A DNA stretch of 40,873 bases, taken from IMG/VR virus record IMGVR_UViG_2609460344_000022; one strand, 5' to 3'. The notes beneath the pieces are model-generated. The model had not been told where the DNA came from. It saw nothing but the letters and a program-made list of their open reading frames with translations, and made no database searches. Made by a program: the position numbers and the translations under genes. Positions 1 to 30,379 of the stretch are shown here, one piece after another. How positions within the stretch are numbered: the first letter of the stretch is position 1; each line of letters starts with the position of its first letter. Source of the DNA: a virus (Duplodnaviria > Heunggongvirae > Uroviricota > Caudoviricetes).

Positions 1-1164
1 TTATGCTTTCTTTGCATCCTCAAAAACCTCAGGGTGGGACAAATTTGGGACATCGTCACCCAATATGTCGTCAATTTTCCTCGCGTGCTCTGTCAAATGA
101 TTAGGTGCAAGGTGTGCGTACCTACGCACCATTTCGATAGACTCCCAGCCGCCCATTTCCTGAAGTACTGACAGTGGTACACCTGACTGAATTAACCAAC
201 TGGCCCAGGTATGGCGGAGGTCATGAAAACGGAAATTTTCAATTCCTGCCCGACGACATGCTGTTAACCACGATGTGTTATAGTCCAGGCGCATCTTTCT
301 GATGCTTGGTGTCATTGTCCCGTCAGGCCTTCTGGCAGCAGTGGTATAAACAAACACCCAGCGGTGATGTTTGCCTATTTGATCACGCAACACCTTGCAG
401 GCAGTGTCATTCAGTGCGACCCCAATAGCGCGGTTTGACTTACTGTCTTCAGGGTTTACCCAGGCAACACGTCGCTGCATATCGATTTGTTGCCACTCCA
501 GATTAATAATGTTTGATCTCCTCAGGCCAGTTGCCAGTGCAAATTTAACTACAGATTTCAGGGGATCAGAACATGCATCAATGAGTCTCCTGGCTTCTTC
601 TTTTTCCAGCCATCTCACGCGTTTGTTTTTTACGGCAGGTATTTTGATTACAGGTGCTTTTTCAAGCCATTTCCAGTCTCGCTCTGCGGCGCGCAGAATA
701 GCCTTGATCATTGCCAGGTGTGTTGCTTTTGTTTGCGTGCTCACCGATTTAGGTATATAGGCTGGTGGTTCTTTCCCTTTTCTTAATGCAGCCTCCACCT
801 GCAACTTCCATCTCTCCTTTGTTTTTCGGTTATACGCTTTGCTGATAACTGAGTAGATCATTGCCTCCGATATATCCTTAATCCTTATTCCCTCGAAATG
901 CTCAATCCAGAATGCGATTCTGGATTTATCGGAATCGATGGATTTCTTGTCGGCTTTTTCCTCAAGCCATCTCAGGCAGGCTTCTTCGAAAGTGACATCT
1001 GGCATATCCCCCAGTCTGTCTACTCGCCAGAGTTCTGCTTTTCGCTTGTCGTGCAACTCCTGAGCTTGCCGCTTGTCCTTTGTGCCAAGAGACTCCTTAA
1101 TTCGCTTCCCGCCCGGGAGCGAGTACGAGGCGTACCATATTTCACCTCTGCGGAAGAGTGACAT
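1..1164 (-). CDS. int: Phage integrase (tyrosine recombinase)
   Basis: 387-aa ORF at prophage edge; C-terminal R..HxxR..Y-type catalytic region ([15 protein letters not shown]...VRRYAHL) typical of lambda-family integrases; followed upstream by xis-like gene. Confidence 0.9.
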
Positions 1165-1391
1165 TTTCTTTCCTCTGTTATGCCATCACCCGCGCTCACC
1201 TGGACAGTATGCAGCGGTGAATGAAGTGCTGCAATGCAGGCTTGCCGGGTTGTGAGATAAGGTGATCTTTTACCGGAAGAATTTTTTCGGGTTGCCTGTA
1301 GTCGGCCCGTTCGTATCCAGTTAACAGCTGTTGGCCTTGATATCTTGAGAAACTTACAGGCCTCTTTGAGGGTGATACTGTGTGAATCCAT
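1020..1391 (-). CDS. xis: Excisionase-like wHTH protein (start chosen at internal ATG 1391)
   Basis: Small basic ORF directly upstream of and overlapping int; N-terminal '[26 protein letters not shown]' resembles Xis/AlpA-type DNA-binding domain; position conserved in lambdoid phages. Confidence 0.55.
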
Positions 1392-1425
1392 ATTTTCGCC
1401 ATTAAAAACCGCCCGAAGGCGGTTG

Positions 1426-1677
1426 TCAGTTGATTGATATGCGGCGCATTTTTCGAAGGCTGGCAATATGCTTTTCCTTCTCAATTTCTGCTTTAATCAT
1501 GTGTAGTTCGTTGTGATCGATTCGCTCAAATTCTGCATTAAATGCGCTAATTGAAGCGGCTCTGGTTCTCCCATCCAGCCTGCGGAAGATTACCTGCGTC
1601 AGAGTGATTTTGCAGACTTCAACCGGATAGTTGTTGGCATCGACGAAAGACTGCCCGCGCTGGATTAGAACGAACAC
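1426..1677 (-). CDS. Hypothetical protein (int-xis to exo accessory slot)
   Basis: 83-aa ORF in the b2/ea-like region between xis and exo; no recognizable motif. Confidence 0.3.
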   Translation of the reverse strand: MFVLIQRGQSFVDANNYPVEVCKITLTQVIFRRLDGRTRAASISAFNAEFERIDHNELHMIKAEIEKEKHIASLRKMRRISIN

Positions 1678-1728
1678 CGGTAGTATTCCTTAATTGTCAT
1701 ATCATTTGCACCTCGTTGCTACTGGCTA

Positions 1729-2406
1729 TCACCATTGCTCCCCAAATACAAAACCAATTTCAGCCAGTGCCTCGTCCATTTTTTCGATGAACTCTGGCAC
1801 CATTTCGTCAAAACCAGCCATGTATTTTTCATCCCGTTCGACCACGACATAATGCAGTCCTTCACGCTTCATACGCGGGTCATAGTTGGCAAAGTACCAG
1901 GCATCTTTTCGTGTCACCCACATGCTGTACTGCACCTGGGCCATGTAAGCCGACTTTATGGCCTCGAAACCACCGAGCCGGAATTTCATGAAATCCCGGG
2001 AGGTAAACGGGCATTTCAGTTCAAGGCCGTTGCCGTCACTGCATAAACCATCGGGAGAGCAGGCGGTGCGCATACTTTCGTCGCGATAGATGATCGGGGA
2101 TTCAGTAACATTCACGCCGGAAGTGAACTCAAAGAGGGCTCTGGCGTCGTTCTCGTACTGTTTTCCCCAGGCCAGCGCTTTAGCGTTAACTTCCGGAGCC
2201 ACACCGGTGCAAACCTCAGCCAGCAGGGTGTGGAAGTAGGACATTTTCATGTCAGGCCATTTCTTTCCTGAGCGGGGTTTTGCTATCACGTTGTGAACTT
2301 CTGAAGCGGTGATGACGCCGAGCCGTAATTTGTGCCACGCATCATCCCCCTGTTCGACAGCTCTCACGTCGATCCCTGTACGTTGCAGGATAATGTCCGG
2401 TGTCAT
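1729..2406 (-). CDS. exo: Lambda-type 5'-3' exonuclease (Red alpha)
   Basis: 225-aa protein matching my recollection of lambda Exo almost residue for residue ([65 protein letters not shown]...). Confidence 0.95.
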
Positions 2407-3188
2407 GCTGCTACCTTCTGCTCTGTGACTTTCTGTTTCAGGAATCCAAGAACCTTCACAGCTTCAGCCTGTGTTAGTTCTGAAGATGTGTAAATGTTGC
2501 GGCGAAAAATCTGGGAACAGAGCGGCAACAGGTCGTCATCCCACGTTTTTTCCATGGAAGTAAGAAGGGCGTTAATTTCCGACATGGTTTCTTCGTTAAC
2601 CGGGGTGATGTCGCGTTCCGGCTGACGTTCTGTAGTATATGCAGTATTTTCGACAATACGCTCGGCTTCATCCTTGTCATAGATGCCAGCAAATCCGAAG
2701 GCCAGGCGAGCACACTGAATCATGGCTTTGTGCCGTAACATCCGTTTGGGATGCGACTGCCACGGTCCGGTGATTTCTCTGCCTTCGCGGGTTTTGAATG
2801 GTGCGCGGCGACATTCATCCATCCACTCGGTAACGCAGATCGGATGATTTCGGTCTTTGCGGTAAATCCGGCATGTACATGATTCATCGTCCTGCTCAAA
2901 GTCCATGCCATCAAACTGCTGGTTTTCATTGATGATGCGGGACCAGCCATCAACACCCACCACCGGAACGATACCGTTCTGTTTATCAGGAAAGGCGTAA
3001 ATCTCTTTCGTCCATGGATTAAGGCCGTACTGGTTAGCGACGATCAGTAGTGCGATGAACTGGGCATCGCTGGCATCACCTTTAAATGCTGTCTGGCGAA
3101 GAGTGGTAATCAGTTCCTGTGGGTCGACAGAATCCATGCCGACACGTTCAGCCAGCTTCCCTGCCAGCGTTGCGAGTGCTGTACTCAT
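2403..3188 (-). CDS. bet: Single-strand annealing protein (Red beta)
   Basis: 261-aa protein matching recalled lambda Bet ([66 protein letters not shown]...); 4-nt overlap with exo. Confidence 0.95.
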
Positions 3189-3193
3189 CCGTT

Positions 3194-3490
3194 TTATACC
3201 TCTGAATCAATATTAATTTGGTGACGGGCGATGGTTTCAGCCATGTAGCGGATGTGTTCTGCCATGCGTTCCTGAAAATCGACATCGTCATCAAATGCAC
3301 GGGAAATAGCTTTTTTGCTGGCCCCGTGACGTTGCAGATTATCGATGCATAGCGATTCAAACAGGTGTTGGGGCAGACCTTTTTCCAGGTCGTCTGCCAG
3401 CTCAGCTTCAGTTTCTTCACGGGCAATTTGCTGGTAGTGTCGTGCCCATGACTGCTCTTCAATGCGATCGGGGATAAGCCAGGCATTCAT
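3194..3490 (-). CDS. gam: RecBCD inhibitor Gam (short form)
   Basis: 98-aa protein matching the recalled C-terminal (GamS) portion of lambda Gam (...QSWARHYQQ...[21 protein letters not shown]...[12 protein letters not shown]...); sits upstream of bet as in lambda. Confidence 0.9.
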
Positions 3491-5547
3491 GATTTATCAC
3501 CTCCGAAATTTTCAAGCCTGTTGGCAATCATGATGGCGATATCAGGGATTGCTGGCGCTGTGGCTATACATGCGGGGTTGGCGCACAAACCATAGACGGC
3601 TGCAATCACGAGCTGTCTTTTCCAGTCGAGAATTTCTGGTTCTGAATCAGCCTTATCGTCGGGCGCATTGTTGCCCTGAGCATTCCGGGCAACTGCCTCG
3701 AGTTCATGAGTTGTATCAGCGGAACTTTCCAGGACATCCGCTTGTGCTGAGTTCTCTTCAGCAGATGTGCCGTTTTCTCCAAAAATTTCAGCGTAAGTTT
3801 CATCTCCTATTACCGGACCGCAGTCAGGGCAGTTGCCCCCACCAGTCTGAGCACAGACGCGGCAGGATTTTTCCAGCTCCGGTTGTGCTACTGGCTCTGG
3901 TTGTTGCTCTGCTGGTCCGTTTTGTTGCGTATCCGGGCTGTTTTGTTCCGCTTCTGGCTCATTTTGTTCCACTTTGGATTGATTCTGGTCTTCAGTGTCG
4001 CGAGTCTGGATCCCCTTCACCCACTTCGGGTCGGTTGGGTCGCTGATACCTTCAACGAATTCTCCGCGAGAAGCCGCCAGTAATTTGTCGGCATCGACTG
4101 GATTTTTTGGGGGGATGTTTTCCCTGGCTTTATTGAGTTCCTCCCTCAGTTCCTGGTATTTCGTTTCTACAGATGAGACATTTTCCAGTGATTGCGTGTC
4201 CTCATTATGTTTAACTGGAATTTCTTCCACTGATTCAGGCGCTGCCTGTTCATTAGCCATTGTGTCCGATGTTTGTTGCTTTTCTTCATCGCCATGTTTT
4301 CCTTCTGCTGTTCCGCGCTGCGGCATCGGTGCTGATGAGCGACCGCAGGCAATTTCCACGATTTCCGGATCCGGGTTAGCGTGATCGGTTTCGGTCAACA
4401 CTTTGTTGAGATATTCAGTCACGCGTGCCGGGATGGCCTCAATGCCGATTGGTGCTTCTTTCACGGAAGCCACCACAATGGCGCGGGAATAATCCAGCCC
4501 ACCGGGCATGGCGATAAATTTGTCGCGAAAAACAGAAAAGGGCGGCTTATTCTCTGACACGATTTCTTCAACGCGTTTTGCGTGTGCTGGGTGCAGGTTA
4601 TAAATATCCACATCCATTGAACGGGCCAGAACGCCGGTGGCTACATCTCGTGCGAGTGATGTCTTATCATGTTTGAATCCTTCACCACGATCGGTAATAT
4701 TTCCGCCGCCAGCGTTAGCACCGGAAGGCGTACGGGTAATGCCTGAAACATAATTTCCGTTCTGCCATTCTTTTGTCAGCAGGCCCTGATCAAGGTAGTC
4801 AGTTTTCATCCAGGTGGAAATGAACTTGTCGAATTCAGCCGGGCTGATGCGATGATTTGCAGAGTGGGGGAATGCTTTCCCTACAGATTCAGCCAGGCGG
4901 CTAAGGTGATAATTCGTCAGCTTATCCAGCTCTGGATGTGAACGCACAGCAGTAAGCAGGCTCTGAAGGTAACTATCTTCTGTGTCCATCTCCAGACGGA
5001 TCACATTATTACGTTGTTCTGGTGTGGCGTGATGCCGGTATTTTCCATCTTTATCCTTGCTAAAGAAGAAGAGGTGAAGGAAACGATGGGTAAGACTGAG
5101 AGTGGCGACGGGAATTTCACAGTCAATACAGTCATCGTCGCTGTCTGTGGATTCGATTTTCTCCGCATTACCCGGAACAGCTCCGTCTGGGTCATCGTTG
5201 CCACCGTCAGCCGTTGTGGCATCTTCACCGTTGATGTTGTCATCGGAGGGTATAGCCATCATGGTGATGCCATCGTTACCGCCTTTTTCATAGCGATTAC
5301 AGAATTCGGTATCAAACACTCCTTCCGGTGGAAGGTCATTTACGACGGGCAAATGAACGCGAACAGGTTTTTTAAAGTCATCTTCATCGTAGCCCGCATC
5401 GTCAATCGCAACAGCACCACGAGAGATTGCAATGGATAATTTTTTCGCCTCAGCCCAGTAAAAACCGCCTTTAATGCCGAGGCGTTTTCTTACCTTGTCA
5501 TTTTTTGCTTCGTAATACAGTGGGTAAACTTGTTTATCAGTGCTCAT
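3487..5547 (-). CDS. Large acidic hypothetical protein (686 aa; start trimmed to ATG 5547 with GAGG SD)
   Basis: Long ORF overlapping gam start by 4 nt (ATGA); acidic low-complexity linkers, CxxC...CxxC zinc-ribbon-like motif ([17 protein letters not shown]); upstream part of track ORF (to 5835) overlaps the preceding gene and lacks an SD. Confidence 0.6.
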
Positions 5548-5617: not shown

Positions 5618-6010
5618 TCAGTGAAATGCTTTCTTGTTTGCGGTTTTGGTGCTGGCCTGAGTCTGTTCGTGCTGGCATTCAGGGCAGTCACAGGTGCATT
5701 CACCATTCTCTCTGATAAGCTGAAGAGCCATTGCCAGTTCCAGTATTGCCTGTGGTTTAATTGTACTGTCGACAATTTCAGATGCTGCATGAATATATGG
5801 GCTGGAAGTTTCGCAATACAAACCGAAGGAAACAAAACGACTGTCCTTATATTCGTTAATTGCGATTTCTGTTAGCTCTGAAAATGAATAGACATAATCT
5901 ATCTTGTGTTTTTTGCATATTTCATTTATGCGTGCTGCGATTTCTTTAAGCTCATTTATTGCGTCAGGGCAGGATTCTGAGAACACTTCGTTCTGTGCGA
6001 GTTCTTTCAT
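5618..6010 (-). CDS. Hypothetical Cys-rich protein
   Basis: 130-aa ORF in the early-left operon; C-terminal CTCDCPECQHE cysteine cluster; no recognized family. Confidence 0.45.
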   Translation of the reverse strand: MKELAQNEVFSESCPDAINELKEIAARINEICKKHKIDYVYSFSELTEIAINEYKDSRFVSFGLYCETSSPYIHAASEIVDSTIKPQAILELAMALQLIRENGECTCDCPECQHEQTQASTKTANKKAFH

Positions 6011-6084
6011 TTTACGTTTCCAGTGTTGATAACTAATGTGAATTGTTGTTTCAGTGTGGATTTAGAGAGCGTATTTATTGCTCA

Positions 6085-6324
6085 TCACCATGATTCGGCC
6101 TTTACAGGCAAACCATCGCGTCCCAGGAAAACTTTAATCATGCAGTCGGTAATGCATGTTTTTGTCGTGAAGTTACGAATATAGAGCTTTCTCTTTTCAA
6201 TATTGTTTGCTGAAGCGATATATGTGCGGCCTTCATGAAGAACATAATCGCCAGGTGTCACGCACTGACGTGGTATTTCATCAGTCCCGAAGTGATGAGC
6301 AATCATAATTATCTCCATTTTCAC
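6085..6324 (-). CDS. Hypothetical small protein (likely starts at ATG 6306 with GGAG SD)
   Basis: 79-aa track ORF; internal ATG preceded by GGAGATAATT gives a 73-aa product; no recognized family. Confidence 0.4.
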
Positions 6325-6482
6325 AAATGAACTTTGTTGATGCGGTGCCTGGTGCCTCCAGGTGACGTTAACCAGTTAACAATTAACGCCGGGTCAGGGG
6401 ATGATGACTTGCCGTGACATCCTGTCGGTTTAACTGTTCCGCGTGCGCTTAGCCGCATTCACCGCATCACAAAATTCACTTT

Positions 6483-6530
6483 AAAAAAGGGCGGACATCA
6501 GCCAGCAATAAACTGATGCCGCCAATGACT
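6483..6530 (-). terminator. Candidate intrinsic terminator inside early-left operon (tL-like)
   Basis: On minus strand: GGCGGCATCAG-loop-CTGATGTCCGCC stem followed by CTTTTTT. Confidence 0.45.
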
Positions 6531-6940
6531 ACACACAGCAATGTTGTTATTCACAACCGGAAGCGCACGGTCGAAGAAAATTTAACGATGCCGTACAGAT
6601 ATACGAGCTTTGCCGTGCGCTTTCGTGTTATGCCCTGGCTTTTCAGGGGAATATCTGTTCAGTAAACTGAGATTGCCGGATTCACACCCGTGTCCGGCGC
6701 ACGAACTCCACCTGACCCGTGGAGAACTCCTTAACTACAACCCCGTAAGGAGGGTGAATTTATGACATAAGAAGAAAAGGCAATGTTTCTGATGCGACTG
6801 GCTGTTGATACCTACAACACACAATTCAGGGAAGAAAAAATACCTCAAAAGGCAGTTCCTGCCGCGGTAGATAGGGGCGGTGCTATTGCCGTATTTTACG
6901 ACGCATTTGAATCCTTTTTTGATGAAAAAACTCGCAGCTG

Positions 6941-7300
6941 TTAGCGACTTCGGAACATCGAGTAATAAATAACGTCCATTACGGTTCTTAAACAACAATC
7001 AGTGGGCTTGATGTTGTGCTTTTCAAGCTCACTTGCCATCACTTCCATTATTCTTGCACTTACACGAATTATTTGGTGGCTGTAAGCGACGCAACTATCG
7101 CTGATATTGCTGTTTATTTCTATTGCTTCATTTTCACCATTAGCACTAACTTCAGATGTGCTGTTTTCATTTTCCTGTATCAGTGCTGCTTCCGCCATCC
7201 TGATGCGTCCCAGCGTTGAGGAATTTGGGCTAAGTTGATAAACCTGTCGGGCATCTTCCAGAAGCAGGGCGATAATGTGCTTCAGTTCTGTTTCGTTCAT
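6941..7300 (-). CDS. Hypothetical protein
   Basis: 119-aa ORF downstream of the zinc-ribbon protein in the N operon; no recognized motif. Confidence 0.45.
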   Translation of the reverse strand: MNETELKHIIALLLEDARQVYQLSPNSSTLGRIRMAEAALIQENENSTSEVSANGENEAIEINSNISDSCVAYSHQIIRVSARIMEVMASELEKHNIKPTDCCLRTVMDVIYYSMFRSR

Positions 7301-7331
7301 GGTTAATTCCGTGAGTTGCGATTTATTAATA

Positions 7332-8045
7332 TCAGGAGGTCAGTTCTTTAAGTTTCTGAACCGCTTTATTCATTTCATCCATGCAGTCGATGAACTCGTC
7401 CAGTTTAAGCTGCATTTTTCCGGCGGCCTGAAGAATTTCAAGTTTTAAGGGCGCGAGTTTTTTGTTGAATACATCATCTTCCTGACGTTTTTTCTCCGCA
7501 ATTTCGGCGGCTTTCAGCAATTCTTCTGCCTGTTTTCTGAGTGTTTCTGGTGAAGGTGAAACTACTTTGAGGTTATTCATTTCAGATTCCTGTTGTTGCA
7601 GAATTAATTTATTACATTCTCTGCGCAAGCGTTTCATTGCAGATTCGCACTTCTTACAATAAATGGCTCTCCCGTCACGTTTGCTGGCATCTGAATAAAA
7701 ATCATCGACTGATTTTGTCTGCCCGCATCTGGTGCATAATTTTGACTGAAGGTCCTTAATGATGGTCACGTTTCCTTCCCGTTTGGGATATCCATATTTT
7801 TTGTGGCGGAAAAAGGTTACTCCGTTACCAGAACCTTCTTTTCTGACCTTAAATACAATGATGCTTTCCCGTTTATCGATAAAATCGATGAGCTGGTTTC
7901 TCTCCTTGCCTGACAGTTCGGCAAATGTCTTAACTTTTTTAGTAACTTCCGTAAGTCGAACGCCATCAGGCATTTTTTCAACGAAGTTTTTAATCTCTGC
8001 AAGTGGACGCCATAATTTTTGCGGCAAAACTGAAGGCGTTGTCAT
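7332..8045 (-). CDS. Hypothetical zinc-ribbon / coiled-coil protein
   Basis: 237-aa ORF immediately downstream of N-like gene (3-nt gap); CTRCGQ...CKKCES zinc-ribbon motif followed by Lys/Glu-rich coiled-coil C-terminus. Confidence 0.55.
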   Translation of the reverse strand: MTTPSVLPQKLWRPLAEIKNFVEKMPDGVRLTEVTKKVKTFAELSGKERNQLIDFIDKRESIIVFKVRKEGSGNGVTFFRHKKYGYPKREGNVTIIKDLQSKLCTRCGQTKSVDDFYSDASKRDGRAIYCKKCESAMKRLRRECNKLILQQQESEMNNLKVVSPSPETLRKQAEELLKAAEIAEKKRQEDDVFNKKLAPLKLEILQAAGKMQLKLDEFIDCMDEMNKAVQKLKELTS

Positions 8046-8048
8046 TTA

Positions 8049-8432
8049 TCACCTCGCTGTTATTGTTCCTGATTTGCGATAGCCTGCCGCGTAAATGGCT
8101 ACGTTTGGAAGACATACACCAGTTTCTGGTTGCTTATGTCCAAACTCATTCGCGTACACAATGGCCGCTCGCTCCAGATTGCGTCTGTATTCTTTCTGTT
8201 GCCAGATCACGTCCTGTGCCATGAACTTAATTGGCTTAGCGTCTTCTATGCGCTCAGGCGTTTCGTGAGTACCTTTAGCCTGAATCTGCGCTCTGCTTAG
8301 AGTAGGGCGGTGTAATACTTCTGAACTTATTGCTTCTTCGCGGGCCAGCACGCCGTTAGCTAATGCCTTTGCCTTTAAACGCTCACGACGACGAGAACGT
8401 GAATTGCCTTTGAACTGAGTTCTGCGTGTCAT
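8049..8432 (-). CDS. N: N-like transcription antitermination protein
   Basis: 127-aa basic protein with N-terminal arginine-rich motif (TRRTQFKGNSRSRRRERLKAKA); first gene downstream of candidate pL/nutL. Confidence 0.6.
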   Translation of the reverse strand: MTRRTQFKGNSRSRRRERLKAKALANGVLAREEAISSEVLHRPTLSRAQIQAKGTHETPERIEDAKPIKFMAQDVIWQQKEYRRNLERAAIVYANEFGHKQPETGVCLPNVAIYAAGYRKSGTITAR

Positions 8433-8597
8433 ATAGACCTCCTGATGAACTTTGGTGGTGTGGTGGGAGGGAGACCCATTTCGACCTGTTTCGGCCTACT
8501 TCAATTCGGCAATAGTCCTGCAGGCCTCGCCGCTTTACGTGCGACATATTCCCGTCCATGAACCCTTCACCACACCCCAAAGTTCACTTTGGTTATT

Positions 8598-8664
8598 GCG
8601 CTTTGTCAGCGCCGTAGATTCATATTCGAATCGTTGTATATTCACCGCCCTGGTGAGTAGAGCG
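8598..8664 (-). promoter_or_regulatory. Candidate nutL (boxA-like + boxB hairpin)
   Basis: Minus-strand CGCTCTACTCACC (boxA-like) then hairpin GCGCT-GACAA-AGCGC; same hairpin/loop and flanking CTACG as the nutR candidate. Confidence 0.5.
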
Positions 8665-8679
8665 TCCTGCTGATGGGTG

Positions 8680-8890
8680 AACTTTATCGGAATGATAAAT
8701 TGATGGCAATAGCAAAATGATAAATTCTTTTGGTTTTCAAATATCGTATTGATTCTTATGGTGTTTTATTTTGTTGTAGGAATTCGACAGGATAAATAAA
8801 GAGATTTGAGGTAGATCTGAATTGCGATGTTTAGTGAGTTGTATCTATTTATTTTTCAACAAATACAATTGGTTATGTGTTTTTAGGTGG
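8680..8890 (-). promoter_or_regulatory. Candidate OL/pL region
   Basis: AT-rich region with three TGATAAAT-type repeats (also present three times between cI and cro); possible TTGCCA-N17-TAAAGT promoter on minus strand. Confidence 0.4.
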
Positions 8891-8899
8891 AGGGATCGA

Positions 8900-8931
8900 G
8901 AGGAAAAGAAAACCCGGCGCTGAGGCCGGGC
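8900..8931 (-). terminator. Intrinsic terminator ending the kinase operon
   Basis: Minus strand: CCCGGC-CTCA-GCGCCGGG hairpin followed by TTTTCTTTT immediately after the small ORF stop. Confidence 0.6.
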
Positions 8932-9095
8932 TAGATTTTAAAGTATTTATCTTTTAGAGATGTAGATGTAAAATTTTTCGCCTTTGAAAATTTTTTGTCA
9001 TCAGAAGGGCTTATGAACTCATCTTTTTTGTAGGGAACCGCTAATGCTGCATCACGTCTGCGAGGCAGCTTGCTTACTTCCTCGCGCTTTTTCAT
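8931..9095 (-). CDS. Small basic protein (54 aa), translationally coupled to kinase
   Basis: ATG 2 nt after kinase stop (TAATCATG) with AAGGA SD inside kinase 3' end; Lys/Arg-rich (MKKREEVSKLPRRRD...); not in ORF track (<60 aa). Confidence 0.4.
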   Translation of the reverse strand: MKKREEVSKLPRRRDAALAVPYKKDEFISPSDDKKFSKAKNFTSTSLKDKYFKI

Positions 9096-9097
9096 GA

Positions 9098-10144
9098 TTA
9101 GTTATCCTTTAATAACCTATACAGTTTTGTAGGGGTACATCCTGAGGATATTGTTAAGTTCGTAGCACGCCTTTTCCGCCCATCATCGTATAAACGAAAA
9201 CCAGTAGTAGACGAATTTTCTGCGTCAAAAACTATAGACAGTATAGCGTCCCCAGACTTTTTTTGCCATTCGCATGTGCCGTTAGTTGGTTTCGTCATCT
9301 GTAGACGCCAGTCAAGAACGCCATCACTTATAGCTGAGAGATCGTTTAGTACATCTAGTACTGATTGATATCTTTCATTTGGATCTACATGAATGCATTT
9401 GTTTACTATTGTTATCAATTTTTTATGTATATGGGGAGGATATTCTTTTAATGGATAGCAGCCATTAATTATCGACTCTCTGAGTTGTTCAATCGTGCTA
9501 AATGCAGATCTTTCTCTTTCAAAATTATCATGTCCAACACACATTCTATATATGGTTAATCCTGCCTGATATATGTCATATGTGAAATTATAATCATTTG
9601 TTGATAAAGAAAAATATTCCGGTGGCACATGAAAATGATATCCAAACTCAGGCGCAGCTCTCGATTCCTCATTGACTAACTGAGATAATCCAAAGTCAGA
9701 TAGCATGGCCTCATTTCTGTTTGATATCATGATGTTATTAGGTTTTATATCAAAATGCATAAGACCTTTTGAGTGTATATGATAAAGTCCACTTAAAAAT
9801 TGAATAGAATACCGTATTATCTCCCTGCTTGTAAGATTATTTTTTTTCATTAATTGGTTTAGCGAACCATTATGATAAAATGGCATGGCTATATAGATAT
9901 TGCTCTCACATTGAGCAGCATACTGAACTTGCACAATATTTGGATGTGCATGTTTATAGAGAAGCCTTGCTTCATTAAAGTAGTCGTCGTGGTTAGTGTT
10001 TTCTTTTTTTTCTATTTCTTTAATCACCAAGTCATGAGCTAGGTGTCTGTCATGAGCCAGATATACTTTTGAAAAACAACCCTGTTCTTCTAGATCACGA
10101 ATCCATTCGAATTCTACATCAGCTCTTTTGTATGGAGTTAGCAT
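9098..10144 (-). CDS. Eukaryotic-like Ser/Thr protein kinase (Stk-like)
   Basis: 348 aa; catalytic loop HFDIKPNN, DFG motif (SDFGLS), beta3 Lys (VIKEI); strongly AT-rich; located between cI and pL. Confidence 0.8.
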   Translation of the reverse strand: MLTPYKRADVEFEWIRDLEEQGCFSKVYLAHDRHLAHDLVIKEIEKKENTNHDDYFNEARLLYKHAHPNIVQVQYAAQCESNIYIAMPFYHNGSLNQLMKKNNLTSREIIRYSIQFLSGLYHIHSKGLMHFDIKPNNIMISNRNEAMLSDFGLSQLVNEESRAAPEFGYHFHVPPEYFSLSTNDYNFTYDIYQAGLTIYRMCVGHDNFERERSAFSTIEQLRESIINGCYPLKEYPPHIHKKLITIVNKCIHVDPNERYQSVLDVLNDLSAISDGVLDWRLQMTKPTNGTCEWQKKSGDAILSIVFDAENSSTTGFRLYDDGRKRRATNLTISSGCTPTKLYRLLKDN

Positions 10145-18797: not shown

Positions 18798-18908
18798 TTG
18801 ACAACGTCGCGTGTTCGGGGCTATATTCCTCACGCGCCAGCAAAACCTGGCGTCGGGATTAGCACCCCGGATATCGAAACGGTGCATAACCGCGCTGGCG
18901 GTTTTTTT
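18798..18908 (+). ncRNA. Promoter + ~75-nt structured RNA + intrinsic terminator (copy 1)
   Basis: TTGACA-N18-TATATT (18798-18827); hairpins CGCCAG-CAAAAC-CTGGCG and AACCGC-GCTG-GCGGTT followed by TTTTTTT (18888-18908). Confidence 0.45.
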
Positions 18909-19072
18909 ATGCGCTAAGCACAGTCACATTCGCGATTTATGGCGGGCTGTGTGGGGGAGCCGAAAGGCTCGCCGGATGTTTCGACCGGTAGTGCTAACCC
19001 CGCACAGTTCGCCACCACGATGATTAGCACCTGACGGTGGCGAGGTAAAAATTATCGAAACGCGAGGTCATT

Positions 19073-20203: not shown

Positions 20204-20382
20204 GACGACAGCGACGAAGCATTACCGATATAGTCTGTGAAAACTGCAATTACCTTCCAACGAAACGTTCCAGAAATAAACCCAGGCCAATCCCAAAAGA
20301 ATCTGACGTTAAAGCCTTCAATTACACGGCTCACCTGTGGGATATCCGGTGGCTAAGACATCGTGCGAGGAAAACAAGGTGA
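20200..20382 (+). CDS. ninE: NinE-like small protein
   Basis: 60 aa, [60 protein letters not shown]; matches my recollection of the NinE family; 4-nt overlap with ninB. Confidence 0.55.
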
Positions 20383-20497
20383 TTGACGTGATGATTTATT
20401 CGGGGCTATATTCCTCACGCGCCAGCAAAATCTGGCGTCGGGATTGGCGTCCTGGATAGAGACCGCGACAGATACACGCCGCGAGCGTGTTTTTTAT
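20383..20497 (+). ncRNA. Promoter + ~75-nt structured RNA + intrinsic terminator (copy 2)
   Basis: TTGACG-N18-TATATT (20383-20412); hairpin CGCCAG-CAAAAT-CTGGCG; terminator ACACGC-CGCGA-GCGTGT + TTTTTTATT (20474-20499). Confidence 0.45.
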
Positions 20498-20656
20498 TGT
20501 CGTATGCACGCGCACATCTGAATTATGGTGGGCTGTGTGGGGGCGGAGAGATCCGCGCCGGTCGGTTTCCCGGTTACGCCAACCCTGCACAGTTCACCAC
20601 CAGACGATTGGCGTCGTCGGTGGTGAGTTATTAAGAAACCACTCGAGGGCGTCATT

Positions 20657-21340
20657 ATGACAACTCAAATCTCTGTTGAAACACTCTCCACGATTACTTA
20701 CAAGCAGATCCCCGTTATCACTACCGAACTTTTGGCGCACCTTTACGGCACAGAAGCTATTCGTATTCGCCAGAATCACCACGAAAACAAAGGTCGTTTC
20801 ATTGAGGAAAAACACTTCTTCAAACTTGAAGGTGAAACTTTACGTGAGTTCAAGCACAGAGTAGCTTTTAACTACTCTGTGAAAATTGCCCGTAACGTTC
20901 GCTCCCTCATCCTCTGGACAGAACGAGGCGCAGCCCGTCACGCCAAAATGCTAGAAACCGATCAGGCGTGGGATGTGTTCGAAAAACTGGAAGACTGCTA
21001 TTTCAGCCAGTGCGAGAAAAATACTGGCAAACAAGAGAAGAAGCCCAACGGGCTTTCCGCAAAAGAAACAGACAGCCTTGTATGGCTGTGGGATTATGCC
21101 AACCGCTCACAGGCATTGTTCCGTGAGTTGTATCCCGCATTAAAACTGATTCAGTCTGGCTATTCCGGCATATGCCACGACTACGGCTATGAGTTCTCGT
21201 ATATCATCGGGAGGGCGAGGGGCGTTTTAATTAATCACACGCGGGATATAGATATTTATGAGCCTGACGGGCCGACGAACCTTCTGGCATGGGAAAGGCT
21301 TAAGAACAAAGAGTTGCCGCCTTCACTGCATCGCTACTGA
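20657..21340 (+). CDS. ORF6N-domain antirepressor-like protein (paralog 2)
   Basis: 227 aa; N-terminal ~120 aa highly similar to paralog 1, C-terminus divergent. Confidence 0.6.
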
Positions 21341-23690: not shown

Positions 23691-24172
23691 TCCGTTCAAC
23701 GGGAATGTTACATACCTCACAATTAAGTCAGTTGAATGTTGTCTGCCCGGATGAGAATTTGTTAGAAAAAACTGCATGGTGAATCCCCCTGAGCGGAGGG
23801 GCGACTGGTGACGGTATAATCTCTGATTATCAAAACGAGAATGACGCGGGTTTAGTGGCACCGGGCTGAACTCACCGGGAGGCACCCGGCACCATGCAAT
23901 GGCACATAGCGCCACTCTCCAGCCCCTCTCCGGAGGGGCTTTCTTATGGACAAAAAAGCCCGCGCTGGGAGACGCGGGCGGCAAGGAATGAACAATGAAA
24001 CGTGAAGTAATATTTCAGCTGGCGAATAATACCCCATAGTAATCACTCTGCGCAACTGCGCGACCTTTTTCGAATTGCGGGCTGTAGTCTCCCTTCTGCC
24101 ATTGTCCTGTAACTTCCGGACTTCAGCCCGCTCCTTATTTTACTCACAATATTATCCCGGCCGGGAGGATTC

Positions 24173-27840: not shown

Positions 27841-28299
27841 ATGAATCGTGTGCTGTATGGCGTGCTTATTGTCCTGCTGCTTGGTTGTGGATCGCTGTGG
27901 CTGGCAACAGACCATTACCGTGATAACGCCATCACCTACAAAGAGCAGCGAGATGATGCGAAGACAAAACTCAGCCAGGCGAACGCCACCATTGCTGACA
28001 TACAGCAGCGCCAGCGTGATGTTGCTGCACTCGATGCCAGATACACCAGGGAGCTTGCTGATGCTAACGCGACTATTGAAAGTCTCCGTGCTGATGTTTC
28101 TGCTGGGCGTAAGCGCCTGCAAGTCGCCGCCACCTGTGCAAAGTCAACGACCGGAGCCAGCGGCATGGGCGATGGAGAAAGCTCAGGACTTACAGCAGAT
28201 GCTGAACTCAATTATTACCGTCTCCGAAGTGGAATCGACAAGATAACCGCGCAGGTTAACTACCTGCAGGAGTACATCAGGATGCAATGCCTCGATTAA
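27841..28299 (+). CDS. Rz: Rz i-spanin
   Basis: 152 aa; N-terminal TM helix, coiled-coil periplasmic domain; follows endolysin. Confidence 0.8.
   Translation: MNRVLYGVLIVLLLGCGSLWLATDHYRDNAITYKEQRDDAKTKLSQANATIADIQQRQRDVAALDARYTRELADANATIESLRADVSAGRKRLQVAATCAKSTTGASGMGDGESSGLTADAELNYYRLRSGIDKITAQVNYLQEYIRMQCLD
28094..28246 (+). CDS. Rz1: Rz1 o-spanin lipoprotein (embedded in Rz, +1 frame)
   Basis: MFLLGVSAC lipobox followed by Pro-rich segment (KSPPPVQSQRPEP); fully nested in Rz. Confidence 0.7.
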   Translation: MFLLGVSACKSPPPVQSQRPEPAAWAMEKAQDLQQMLNSIITVSEVESTR

Positions 28300-28303
28300 C
28301 AGA

Positions 28304-28330
28304 GCCAGCTCAATCGCTGGCCTTTTTTAT
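28304..28330 (+). terminator. Intrinsic terminator after Rz
   Basis: GCCAGC-TCAAT-GCTGGC hairpin + CTTTTTT. Confidence 0.55.
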
Positions 28331-28379
28331 GAGGAGAGATATAACCTGAATCAATGCCAGTGCATTATCAACAAATGGA

Positions 28380-28961
28380 TCACTGGGTAAGCTCGTTTGG
28401 TTTTAAATGTCCGTCGAGAATCAGATTGTGATTTTCCCGATGCAGAACCAGTGTGCCCATATAATCAGGTTTAAATCTCCATCCATTCATTTTTTTTGCA
28501 ATTCTGGACAGACAGTGATTATGTGTGAAAATCACAGTAACATGATCTGATTTTGATATTTTAAGGATATTATTTACTGCGTTATCATCACATGTCGATA
28601 TGTCCGGAATAGTTGCTGTCTTACCTCCCGAAAAAAAAGTGGCTGTCTGCATTGTTCGGAGTGTGTCTGTAGAATAGAGACTGTAGTATGGAAACATTCT
28701 TCTGAATTTATCTCCATATTGTTGAGCTTTGTTAGCTCCGTTTACTGTGATTCCCTCATGTGCTGAAAGACATATTCTTTGGGAGCGATCGCATCTTTCC
28801 CCATGCCGGATGAGAAAAATAATGGGATGTTTCTGGTTAATCTCAGTGACATCGTTCACATCAAGTCTGACTGGAGTTCTTACAATGTATATGATGGATA
28901 CAGAAACGATTATGACAAGTAAAAATATAAGAAGAGATTTTGTTAGCGTTTGATTTAACAT
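28380..28961 (-). CDS. Ais/PmrG-like histidine phosphatase (putative LPS core heptose-phosphate phosphatase)
   Basis: 193 aa from ATG 28961 (AAGGGA SD); RHG motif 'IIFLIRHGERCDRSQRICLSAHEGITVNG' and 'VIFTHNHCLSRIAK...FKPDY' align with recalled E. coli Ais; N-terminal TM/signal; AT-rich; opposite strand to late genes. Confidence 0.75.
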   Translation of the reverse strand: MLNQTLTKSLLIFLLVIIVSVSIIYIVRTPVRLDVNDVTEINQKHPIIFLIRHGERCDRSQRICLSAHEGITVNGANKAQQYGDKFRRMFPYYSLYSTDTLRTMQTATFFSGGKTATIPDISTCDDNAVNNILKISKSDHVTVIFTHNHCLSRIAKKMNGWRFKPDYMGTLVLHRENHNLILDGHLKPNELTQ

Positions 28962-29563
28962 ATAAATTCCCTTGTCTGTGTTGAAAATGGGCATTATTAT
29001 GCGTAAATCTTATGTAATCCTTAAGGATTGTCTGACGTGGTGATATGACGCGAAATACAGTGGGTACACAGAATGCTGTGAACAACGACGAAATGGGCAT
29101 TGGTAGCGGTACTGGTGCTTTTTTTATTGGTTGGTTGCTCAAGTCTTGATAAAGCGCGTTAGCTTTTTGGTATTGCCTCTTAGGTCTGTAAAATTGCCGA
29201 CGGTGTCCGGCAGTGCATGCAGGGCTGATCGTCTATGAGAACAGAATATATTGCTAAAAATGAAGTGTGCGTCAATGCTTATAAAGCATGCAATTCTGTA
29301 TTTCTAACTATTCAATAAAATAAATTCTTTCTGTCGCAGTGAATATACAAATGTTGATCAGCGCTCGATGTGGCGACGGGTTTCTATATCAGGAGACTTT
29401 GGCATTTATCCGCGAGGCAGCCTATCTGGTGCTGTAGTGGAATGAAGCGGATATAACCTAAATAAGGTTAAACATTAATCAGACATGGCTCTGCTGTGTG
29501 AAATCTGAAAATTTACAGCAGTCATTGTGCATCAGTTTTTAACAGAGAACGTCAGAAGGTGAC

Positions 29564-30379
29564 ATGGCAAAGCTGGACTGGAAAAAGCTGGAGCAGGCAT
29601 TTCGACGCGAACATGTCAAAACCGGCATAAAGCTTCAGGATTGGTGCCGTCAGAACAATATCAGTTATGACACGGCTCGGCGGTACATTAAACTGCGCAA
29701 ACACTCCCCCAGAAATACAGAGAAAAGTGCGCAGAAAAATGCGCAAATTGATGATCAAAAAAGTGCGCAGAAATCTGACGGCAACTCCAGTCATGACGAG
29801 CCTTCAGGCGATGATGGTTGTGATGAAAAATGCGCAAATTTGGCAGAAACGAAACGGACTCGTGGTTCCAGACTTTTGCCACCTTCAAATGCTTTTTCTC
29901 AGCGTAACACCCACGCCGTCAGACACCGTGGATACGCGAAGTATCTCGAGGCAGATAACCTCATAGATGATGCAGTCGGAATGGAACTTGCCGATGAACT
30001 GGTGTTTACCCGGGCCCGCGCACTTTCAGTAACAGGAACACTGAAAAAAATGTTCGCCGACCTGAAAGAGGCGGCTGACGTGGAAACCCGCGTTGCTCTG
30101 TACGACAAAATACTCAAAGCTGAACAGGCTCTTGACCGGAATATTGCCCGTATCGAGTCAATTGAACGCTCATTGCTGACGCTGGACGTTCTGGCTGAAA
30201 CAGCACCAAAACTTCGTGCTGACCGGGAAAGAACCAACGCTGCCAGAGATAAACTCAGAGCGGAAACCGATATTCTGACCAGCCAGCGTCGGGGCGTTGT
30301 TACGCCTGTCAGTGACATCGTGTCATCGCTGCATGAAATGAGTAATTCGGGGAGACTGGATGACATTCCGGAAGAATGA
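29564..30379 (+). CDS. Terminase small subunit (putative)
   Basis: 271-aa ORF immediately upstream of and overlapping the large terminase; N-terminal HTH-like segment. Confidence 0.5.
   Translation: MAKLDWKKLEQAFRREHVKTGIKLQDWCRQNNISYDTARRYIKLRKHSPRNTEKSAQKNAQIDDQKSAQKSDGNSSHDEPSGDDGCDEKCANLAETKRTRGSRLLPPSNAFSQRNTHAVRHRGYAKYLEADNLIDDAVGMELADELVFTRARALSVTGTLKKMFADLKEAADVETRVALYDKILKAEQALDRNIARIESIERSLLTLDVLAETAPKLRADRERTNAARDKLRAETDILTSQRRGVVTPVSDIVSSLHEMSNSGRLDDIPEE

Follow-up and report, generated by a model that had tools for sequence, protein, structure and literature searches.

A divergent Ais/PmrG-type histidine phosphatase gene in the bor slot of an Escherichia coli O104:H4 prophage, preceded by a PmrA-box-like promoter element

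Our analysis of a 40,873-nt stretch of viral DNA (Caudoviricetes; IMG/VR record IMGVR_UViG_2609460344_000022; the whole stretch is referred to here as the window) reveals that a lambdoid prophage carries, antisense to its lysis and packaging genes, an intact gene whose product falls in branch 1 of the histidine phosphatases and in the Ais/PmrG subfamily. The gene sits in the slot that bor occupies in lambda and lies downstream of a conserved element that resembles a PmrA/BasR box. The explanation that we consider probable, if well short of certain, is that it is a PmrA-controlled moron whose product dephosphorylates the inner core of lipopolysaccharide (LPS) in lysogens. The gene and its start region comprise the following features, in which the coding sequence is also given as annotated by the Prokaryotic Genome Annotation Pipeline (PGAP):

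28380-28994, minus strand: Ais/PmrG-like histidine phosphatase open reading frame (ORF) as first called, 204 aa, from the ORF list
28380-28961, minus strand: phosphatase coding sequence if M12, the probable start, is used; 193 aa plus stop codon, with a product identical to WP_000934362.1 (PGAP locus 20281-20862)
28962-28994, minus strand: in-frame upstream extension of 11 codons (MPIFNTDKGIY), probably 5′ untranslated region or promoter and not translated
28968-28973, minus strand: Shine-Dalgarno-like AAGGGA, read from the sequence, 6 nt upstream of the M12 ATG

Profile searches place the protein in the Ais/PmrG subfamily. Specifically, the subfamily profile NF011945 gives a score of 201.9 bits against a cutoff of 142 (E = 7e-60), with residues 20-198 aligned to profile positions 14-199 of 201 and the alignment therefore whole-length, and Pfam His_Phos_1 (PF00300) exceeds its gathering score of 21.7 with 28.7 bits, over profile positions 1 to 67, the N-terminal third only. 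Close homologues reach E = 1e-125, which puts the identification well outside chance. Calibration of NF011945 with known proteins yields 366 for Salmonella PmrG, 375 for E. coli Ais, 296 for TraG of IncI plasmids, and about 202 for the window protein and its close relatives, so that the window protein scores about 55% of a true orthologue (202 vs about 370). A second profile, NF052369 ("PmrG equivalog"), was rejected as a membership criterion: the window protein scores 113.2 bits, below the cutoff of 170, and genuine PmrG of Salmonella (146) and Ais of E. coli (144) also fall short, so the failure is uninformative and the model, whatever its name, is evidently meant for a different group. A search of PHROGs returned no significant family for the phosphatase.

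The true start is probably M12 at 28961, and M1 at 28994 was rejected in favour of this codon 33 nt further in. M12 is preferred because most homologues in the family alignment begin at the equivalent Met, because AAGGGA precedes only M12, and because -10-like hexamers (28993-29001) overlap the M1 ATG. PGAP likewise starts the gene at M12, and no Shine-Dalgarno sequence was seen on reading upstream of the ATG at 28994.

The predicted catalytic residues and motifs have the following positions:

28782-28808, minus strand: catalytic motif RHGERCDRS, residues 52-60, with H53 as predicted phospho-acceptor; from the translation, invariant in the family alignment
28656-28658, minus strand: codon of R102 in RTMQTA, the predicted second phosphate-binding Arg, nearly invariant and aligned to RTIQTA of PFKFB2
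28512-28526, minus strand: THNHC motif, residues 146-150, the conserved second-histidine region; from the translation, with H147, H149 and C150 invariant

In particular, across Ais, PmrG, and the mobile clade to which the window protein belongs, there is no variation at R52, H53, E55, R56, C57, D58, R59, S60, C64, H147, H149 and C150, and almost none at R102. A profile search matched RHGE and RTxQTA to the catalytic motifs of PFKFB2, RHGE and RTIQTA, which lie in its fructose-2,6-bisphosphatase domain. From a family alignment of 16 sequences, AlphaFold2 gave a confident model in which residues 2-26 form a helix and an alpha/beta domain comes after it (mean predicted local distance difference test score 86.5, predicted template modelling score 0.79). 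The top 50 Foldseek matches of this model in the PDB are all branch-1 histidine phosphatases, among them phosphoserine phosphatase, the histidine-phosphatase domain of MutT1, SixA, PhoE, and CobC, with E down to 9e-7, probability 1.00, template modelling scores of about 0.5-0.66, and sequence identities of 10-18%. PDB searches by sequence gave no match with the single sequence and only marginal matches with a profile, and we therefore found no solved structure of the Ais family. Because the catalytic residues are conserved and the motifs align to those of fructose-2,6-bisphosphatase, the phosphatase looks catalytically competent; H147 corresponds to the canonical second histidine by position only.

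The N-terminus contains one strongly hydrophobic segment:

28881-28937, minus strand: hydrophobic N-terminal helix, residues 9-27, SLLIFLLVIIVSVSIIYIV, predicted from the translation to be a signal anchor or signal peptide

This segment is far more hydrophobic than the export segments of Ais and PmrG (Kyte-Doolittle 19-residue means of 3.06, 1.65 and 1.46 for the phosphatase, Ais and PmrG, respectively), and it is followed by RTP and not by an Ala-X-Ala-like site, whereas Ais has THA|AW. Relatives Ais, PmrG, and IncI TraG carry signal peptides. Three cysteines (C57, C64, and C150) do not vary in the family alignment, and most members have another, in an STC motif; such conserved cysteines are typical of oxidised periplasmic proteins and fit an oxidising compartment. 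We infer that an uncleaved signal anchor holds the protein at the inner membrane, with its catalytic domain facing the periplasm.

The window gene appears to be a divergent second copy of ais, a paralogue and not a displaced orthologue, because identity to chromosomal Ais/PmrG is 38-41% (38% to PmrG) and because chromosomal ais, located between nudI and arnB, is a separate gene present in 5413 of the 5426 complete E. coli genomes (99.8%). Orthology with ais/pmrG was accordingly ruled out, the position in a prophage and not beside arnB being a further ground. An earlier note on this DNA, read from the letters, had anticipated much of this. It described an AT-rich, oppositely oriented gene at 28380-28994, and the ORF lies exactly there, on the minus strand, in the most AT-rich stretch of that part of the window (GC content 0.364 over 28501-29000, against 0.47-0.56 in the flanking lysis and packaging genes). 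It read the product as a histidine phosphatase with an RHG motif, which agrees with the Pfam score above gathering, the fold model, and an invariant R52-H53-G54; as Ais-like along its length, including the RHxERCDR and FTHNHC segments, which agrees with the full-length NF011945 match and with the motifs RHGERCDRS and THNHC verified by translation; and as having an N-terminal membrane or signal segment, which agrees with the modelled helix and its hydrophobicity. Its likening of the protein to Ais holds for the subfamily, the protein being a paralogue, and its implied start at 28994 gives way to M12 on the evidence of the Shine-Dalgarno sequence, PGAP, and the homologue starts.

The region upstream of the gene contains a candidate promoter for PmrA-dependent transcription:

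29009-29025, minus strand: PmrA/BasR-box-like direct repeat, CTTAAG-GATTA-CATAAG, lying 48-64 nt upstream of the M12 start codon
28993-29001, minus strand: overlapping -10-like hexamers CATAAT (29001-28996) and AATAAT (28998-28993), which follow the box after 7 and 10 nt

A PmrA box comprises two hexamers 5 bp apart, CTTAAG or CTTAAT as half-site 1 and XTTAAT as half-site 2; PmrA contacts the repeated TAA bases, and a Klebsiella half-site CCTAAG has been verified (PMC3973317, PMC10570014). The box takes the place of the -35 element (PMC10570014). The gene-strand order upstream of the phosphatase is CTTAAG-GATTA-CATAAG, ATTTACG, CATAAT/AATAAT, and M1 ATG, and reading of the sequence revealed no -35 hexamer, as in PmrA-dependent promoters; the region thus has, at the sequence level, the arrangement that defines the PmrA regulon, namely a box replacing the -35 element upstream of a -10 element. 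In E. coli, the promoter of arnB is arranged likewise (CTTAAGGTTAAGTTAAT, 10 nt, TAAAAT).

Conservation of the box sets it apart from its surroundings. In every locus of the close mobile clade, a set with at least six distinct upstream variants and with proteins 60-100% identical to that of the window, a box with at most one mismatch lies 64-71 nt upstream of the start, and one locus (L099) has a perfect box, CTTAAG-GATTC-CTTAAG. The sole invariant block in alignments of the upstream regions is TTAAG..T..TAA, together with a few -10 positions, and the flanks are unalignable; in the same loci, the background outside these sites is about 4.6e-5 per position. Neutral DNA would not stay conserved over this distance, because synonymous divergence (dS) is near saturation (0.65-2.0). 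Boxes with at most one mismatch within 150 nt upstream are absent at chromosomal ais, at IncI traG, and in a more distant plasmid lineage (P0036), and the box appears to be specific to the close mobile clade. Because the box is positionally conserved amid diverged DNA, we propose, with moderate confidence, that the phosphatase is transcribed from its own BasR-dependent promoter, with a start near 28986-28990.

Other repeats and a small ORF were observed in or near regions of this kind. A second PmrA-box-like repeat (CTTAATACGTGATTAAT or CTTAATATACGATTAAT, one mismatch) lies between tRNA and holin genes in E10/O139-type prophages (L004 at about 4650, minus strand; L104 at about 7840, plus strand; L003 at about 3992, minus strand) and may be chance or conserved phage DNA. 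Homologues in the Pseudomonas putida group are preceded, about 70-130 nt upstream, by a direct repeat, TTTTTCAC-N(5-6)-CTTCAC (loci L028, L029, L033, L035, L042, L060, L061, L063 and others), which resembles a response-regulator box, possibly of ColR type; this suggests that two-component control of the family reaches beyond the enterics. In the window, a plus-strand ORF at 29045-29149 (34 aa, MTRNTVGTQNAVNNDEMGIGSGTGAFFIGWLLKS), the tail of which is hydrophobic, coincides in part with a T-run-bearing hairpin (29095-29120); the stretch 29045-29149 is conserved in the upstream region of the E10 prophage and is unannotated in C227-11.

The gene lies at the junction between the lysis and morphogenesis genes, in the order holin, lysozyme, spanin-type "lysis protein", antisense phosphatase, small terminase subunit, with the following flanking features:

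27841-28299, plus strand: closing gene of the lysis cassette, an Rz-like spanin ("lysis protein"), from the ORF list and annotation
28304-28331, no strand assigned: GC-rich hairpin GCCAGC-tcaatc-GCTGGC (28304-28321), with a T-run on the plus strand and an A-run on the other side, from a terminator scan
29564-30379, plus strand: small terminase subunit, the first morphogenesis gene, from the ORF list and annotation

The hairpin sits between the convergent stops of the spanin gene (28299) and the phosphatase gene (28380). In lambda, bor directly follows Rz/Rz1 on the opposite strand, which is the same slot; in the O104:H4 Stx2 phages P13374 and phiON-2011, a Rha-like regulator is at this junction. 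The spanin DNA next to the phosphatase gene is present in 1957 E. coli genomes, and only 43 of those have the gene. Diverged homologues (79% and about 67% nucleotide identity) lie in the same antisense slot of other lambdoid prophages, which have a different endolysin (an M15 peptidase) and a different terminase, and this recurrence points to repeated and independent acquisition of the gene by different prophages. With its atypical GC content (0.37 over the coding sequence, about 0.5 around it), antisense orientation, promoter-like box with a -10 element, hairpin, and patchy presence, the gene fits the definition of a moron (PMC3594210).

The allele itself (at least 99% identity) occurs in 43 of the 5426 complete E. 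coli genomes, and about 40 further E. coli genomes, mostly porcine enterotoxigenic E. coli (ETEC) or O139 strains, have diverged copies. Among phage records, 1 of 50,697 has the gene, namely GER2, an Stx1-converting Sepvirinae phage of O117:H7, and IMG/VR holds 22 prophage contigs with clade members. The description in the earlier note of a moron after the lysis cassette that is not a standard lambdoid gene therefore finds support in composition, in orientation, in the gene's own promoter- and terminator-like elements, and in these counts.

The same observations bear on whether the gene does anything at all. In all clade copies examined the ORFs are intact, and comparison with the diverged homologues gives a nonsynonymous-to-synonymous ratio (dN/dS) of 0.18-0.28 at dS of 0.65-2.0, indicating that the gene is under purifying selection. 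AT-rich foreign DNA is typically silenced by H-NS, and the gene is both AT-rich and rare, as would be expected of a silent hitch-hiker, an acquired fragment with neither expression nor function in the lysogen. We find that account scarcely credible, in view of intact ORFs with dN/dS of about 0.2 at near-saturated dS, a promoter island conserved in diverged flanks, and repeated independent acquisition into the same slot of different prophages.

In the mechanism that we favour, the prophage moron in the bor slot, whose 193-aa product is an Ais/PmrG-type histidine phosphatase of branch 1, would be transcribed in the lysogen from its own promoter, with the PmrA/BasR box replacing the -35 element. 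Expression would be switched on together with the host LPS-remodelling regulon, by Fe3+, Al3+, or mild acid. By analogy with Salmonella PmrG, the enzyme would take phosphate off heptose II of the LPS inner core, or off a similar envelope phosphomonoester, and phosphate removal would lower the negative charge of the surface. During lytic growth, to judge from lambdoid architecture, the Q-antiterminated late transcript would run antisense across the gene. For PmrG, a passage of PMC8129183 that cites Nishino 2006 states that "PmrG dephosphorylates Heptose II". The earlier note put forward superinfection exclusion and altered resistance to antimicrobial peptides or serum as plausible consequences in lysogens. 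Deletion of pmrG left polymyxin B resistance unchanged in PmrA-constitutive E. coli (PMC8129183), so a polymyxin assay may be uninformative for the prophage gene. A reported difference in polymyxin resistance among O104:H4 strains (PMC3486847) was considered as a possible effect of the gene and ruled out, all three strains carrying it identically.

Several observations weigh against this mechanism. The modest identity to Ais/PmrG and the score of about 55% of an orthologue mean that the identity of the substrate is not secure, and the near-universal presence of ais (5413 of 5426 genomes) leaves the gain from a second copy unexplained. No signal-peptidase motif of the Ala-X-Ala type is evident after the N-terminal helix, and the topology is a prediction. 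Half-site 2 of the box, CATAAG, differs from XTTAAT at two positions, as does the Klebsiella half-site CCTAAG. A scan of the whole window for boxes with at most one mismatch found 3 against 2.15 expected, which is not significant, so that the case for the box rests on position and conservation. Finally, one relative within the clade bears the source name "transcriptional activator AfrS".

The first of these points opens the way to the main rival, in which the fold is the same and the substrate in the envelope is another one, with a lysogen phenotype unlike that of PmrG. Candidates are lipid A 1- or 4′-phosphate, heptose I phosphate or pyrophosphoethanolamine, a phosphate linked to Kdo, undecaprenyl-pyrophosphate, and a periplasmic phosphoprotein. 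Such a shift would accord with the 38% identity to PmrG and the reduced NF011945 score, and would make a redundant copy of a near-universal host gene easier to explain; in addition, the strong anchor would keep the enzyme at the inner membrane, near nascent LPS and lipid carriers. However, the protein retains all invariant residues of Ais/PmrG, including the ERCDRS, GIT, and HNHCL blocks, the clade passes the curated subfamily cutoff, and the PmrA-type box puts the gene in a regulon of enzymes that reduce LPS charge. We regard a shifted substrate as unlikely, and prefer heptose II phosphate of the LPS inner core, or something very like it, as the target.

Relatives outside the window lead to a different alternative. 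Diverged relatives (60-85% protein identity) occur in the same slot or as cargo flanked by insertion sequences (IS) beside adhesin genes; in particular, closer plasmid copies (60-80% identity) occur on 29 plasmids, IS-flanked and beside F4 fimbrial or AIDA-I adhesin genes. The relative with the AfrS name (P0066) is a truncated and frameshifted clade member, 60% identical over the aligned part. AfrS is said, in work of Cantey and colleagues from 1999, to be a co-activator that acts with the AraC-type AfrR on the AF/R1 pilus operon of the rabbit enteropathogenic E. coli RDEC-1. It could be argued, then, that the phosphatase acts with an AraC-family partner to activate fimbrial or adhesin genes and is not primarily an LPS enzyme, and the adhesin-linked plasmid copies would suit that role, as would porcine ETEC/O139-type prophages with an AraC-family gene upstream of the holins and an Ais-like gene right after the endolysin. 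We judge this distinctly improbable. Neither the annotated 41-kb prophage of the window nor the E10 prophage contains an AraC-family gene, such a partner being present only in the O139/UMNF18-type prophages; a membrane-anchored, cysteine-rich, catalytically intact protein is unlike a DNA-binding or cytoplasmic co-activator; a fimbrial effect could be indirect, through a change in the envelope, which is the simpler account; and the AfrS name comes from the source record and does not stand for a tested function of that protein.

The AraC-family and Ais-like genes of the porcine ETEC/O139-type prophages are located at 3066-3917 and 5977-6552 of locus L004 and at 9479-10192 and 7001-7453 of locus L111, the UMNF18 copy being truncated, and the pair that straddles the lysis cassette in O139/UMNF18-type prophages could be AfrR/AfrS-like. 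The P0036 lineage (42% identical; L113-L115, about 7001-13777) is found on contigs of 45-116 kb, has no PmrA-like box, and lies upstream of two alpha/beta-hydrolase genes and a serine protease autotransporter of the Enterobacteriaceae (SPATE; Peptidase_S6).

The family as a whole extends further. A distant cousin, IncI "TraG" (about 45% identity), is encoded on about 1,380 conjugative plasmids, one of them pESBL of O104:H4. Members also occur in Citrobacter, in Salmonella, and, at about 30% identity, in the Pseudomonas putida group. IncI "traG" lies between traF and traH and adjoins the rci shufflon (L109 3875-4459, pN441, IncI-gamma). In the literature searched, no description of a role of IncI TraG in conjugation was found. 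The LPS core is a common phage receptor and is also the receptor of IncI PilV adhesins.

These relatives bring in receptor editing, or superinfection exclusion, as a selective benefit in place of protection of the host from stress: an altered inner core would cut the adsorption of rival phages or of IncI thin pili or, in a variant, would keep progeny from being wasted on lysogens and cell debris. Consistent with such a benefit, family members recur in three mobile settings, namely in prophages, as IS-flanked cargo of plasmids, and, as "TraG" by the shufflon, on IncI conjugative plasmids, and the same prophage encodes, by annotation, the exclusion lipoprotein Cor. A stress-conditional promoter of the PmrA type would be odd for constitutive exclusion, however, and PADLOC returned no matching defence model. 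Receptor editing concerns benefit and is compatible with the favoured biochemical mechanism; no result here supports it, and as the explanation of the gene we hold it to be very improbable. A joint reading, in which the mobile clade and IncI TraG are circulating "surface-editing" phosphatases under host PmrAB command that remove an inner-core LPS phosphate and so alter the receptors of phages and IncI pili and, indirectly, adhesin display, strikes us as quite unlikely; if true, it would explain the old AfrS "activator" phenotype and would mean that mobile elements bring a paralogous enzyme directly under a two-component regulator of the host.

At 100% identity, the window matches a prophage found in E. 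coli O104:H4 (e.g. C227-11, 2011C-3493, HUSEC2011) and in a few other lineages. The prophage is lambdoid, is integrated in ynfG, has a 933W-type morphogenesis module and no stx, and has, by prophage annotation, a SASA-family esterase between Q and holin, in place of stx. The window begins, at about 1-3650, in chromosomal clcB-dmsD-ynfH, and the integrase abuts a truncated ynfG; the insertion is therefore within the ynfEFGH-dmsD operon. An Rfam scan gave no match between 28.2 and 29.6 kb. Elsewhere in the window, gathering-level Rfam matches are located at 16783-16957, 18821-19019, 20406-20604, and 23746-23951 and comprise the sok antitoxin RNA (with hokD), two isrK/C4/c4-a1b1 antisense-RNA modules that flank toxin-antitoxin genes, and the small RNA STnc100 downstream of the antiterminator Q gene. 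In the tail fibre gene, the stretch 39500-40500 has a GC content of 0.66-0.69 and an A-over-T skew of up to 0.57, the prophage being otherwise at about 0.5 GC, and could encode glycine-rich or collagen-like repeats.

RefSeq/PGAP and the GenBank record of GER2 already give the gene an Ais/PmrG-type product name. Because automated annotation names it correctly, the gain here is in regulation, distribution, and paralogy, and not in a new kind of gene. Our literature searches found no paper on a prophage-borne Ais/PmrG homologue, histidine phosphatase, or its regulation, and a paper comparing O104:H4 prophages does not mention the phosphatase gene. The new elements, namely the paralogy, the revised start, the recurrence in the bor slot, the PmrA-type promoter island, the stronger anchor, and the links to AfrS and TraG, are incremental; the regulatory wiring and the spread on mobile elements are the modestly new parts. 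If the favoured mechanism is true, the prophage of the 2011 O104:H4 outbreak lineage and the O117:H7 Stx1 phage add a second, differently anchored LPS-core phosphatase to the surface remodelling that PmrAB controls in their hosts, and the gene clearly exemplifies phage cargo that answers to a two-component system of the host. There could then be effects on tolerance of metals and cationic peptides, on the outer membrane, and on receptors for phages or conjugative pili, and there would be a biochemical account for the "AfrS" fimbrial regulator and for the small IncI TraG.

The phosphatase can be compared with several known systems. Salmonella PmrG and E. coli Ais belong to the same NF011945 subfamily and the same length class of about 200 aa, have an N-terminal export segment, and share with the phosphatase the motifs RH(G/A)ERCDRS, GIT, RTxQ(T/S)A, and THNHCL and the conserved cysteines. 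The likeness extends to a predicted promoter with a PmrA box; specifically, the phosphatase has a box at -64 on its own promoter, whereas chromosomal ais has none with at most one mismatch within 150 nt. The phosphatase also differs in forming a separate clade, in occupying a prophage cargo slot and not the neighbourhood of arnB, and in being present in fewer than 2% of E. coli genomes, against 99.8% for chromosomal ais. SixA, PhoE, CobC, phosphoserine phosphatase, and fructose-2,6-bisphosphatase share its fold and the RHG, Arg, and His motifs, but the phosphatase is predicted to be exported or membrane-anchored and is cysteine-rich, unlike the cytoplasmic branch-1 enzymes, to which its identity is 10-18%.

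Among mobile elements, TraG of IncI1 and IncI-gamma plasmids is likewise an Ais-family histidine phosphatase with an export signal (the pESBL gene of O104:H4, O3K_25647, is annotated as Ais-family; PMC4288162), but it is encoded in a tra operon, has no PmrA-like box, and has a cleavable-looking signal peptide. The AfrS-named UMNF18 copy is located in the same antisense slot after the lysis genes and has the same upstream box as the phosphatase; in contrast to the UMNF18-type prophage, the window prophage has no AraC partner. The closest parallel in genome position is lambda bor, which has the identical slot and orientation, antisense to and convergent with the late operon, and which, like the phosphatase gene, is cargo directed at the envelope, with presumed expression in the lysogen. 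The proteins are unrelated: Bor is an outer-membrane lipoprotein that confers serum resistance, whereas the phosphatase is an enzyme.

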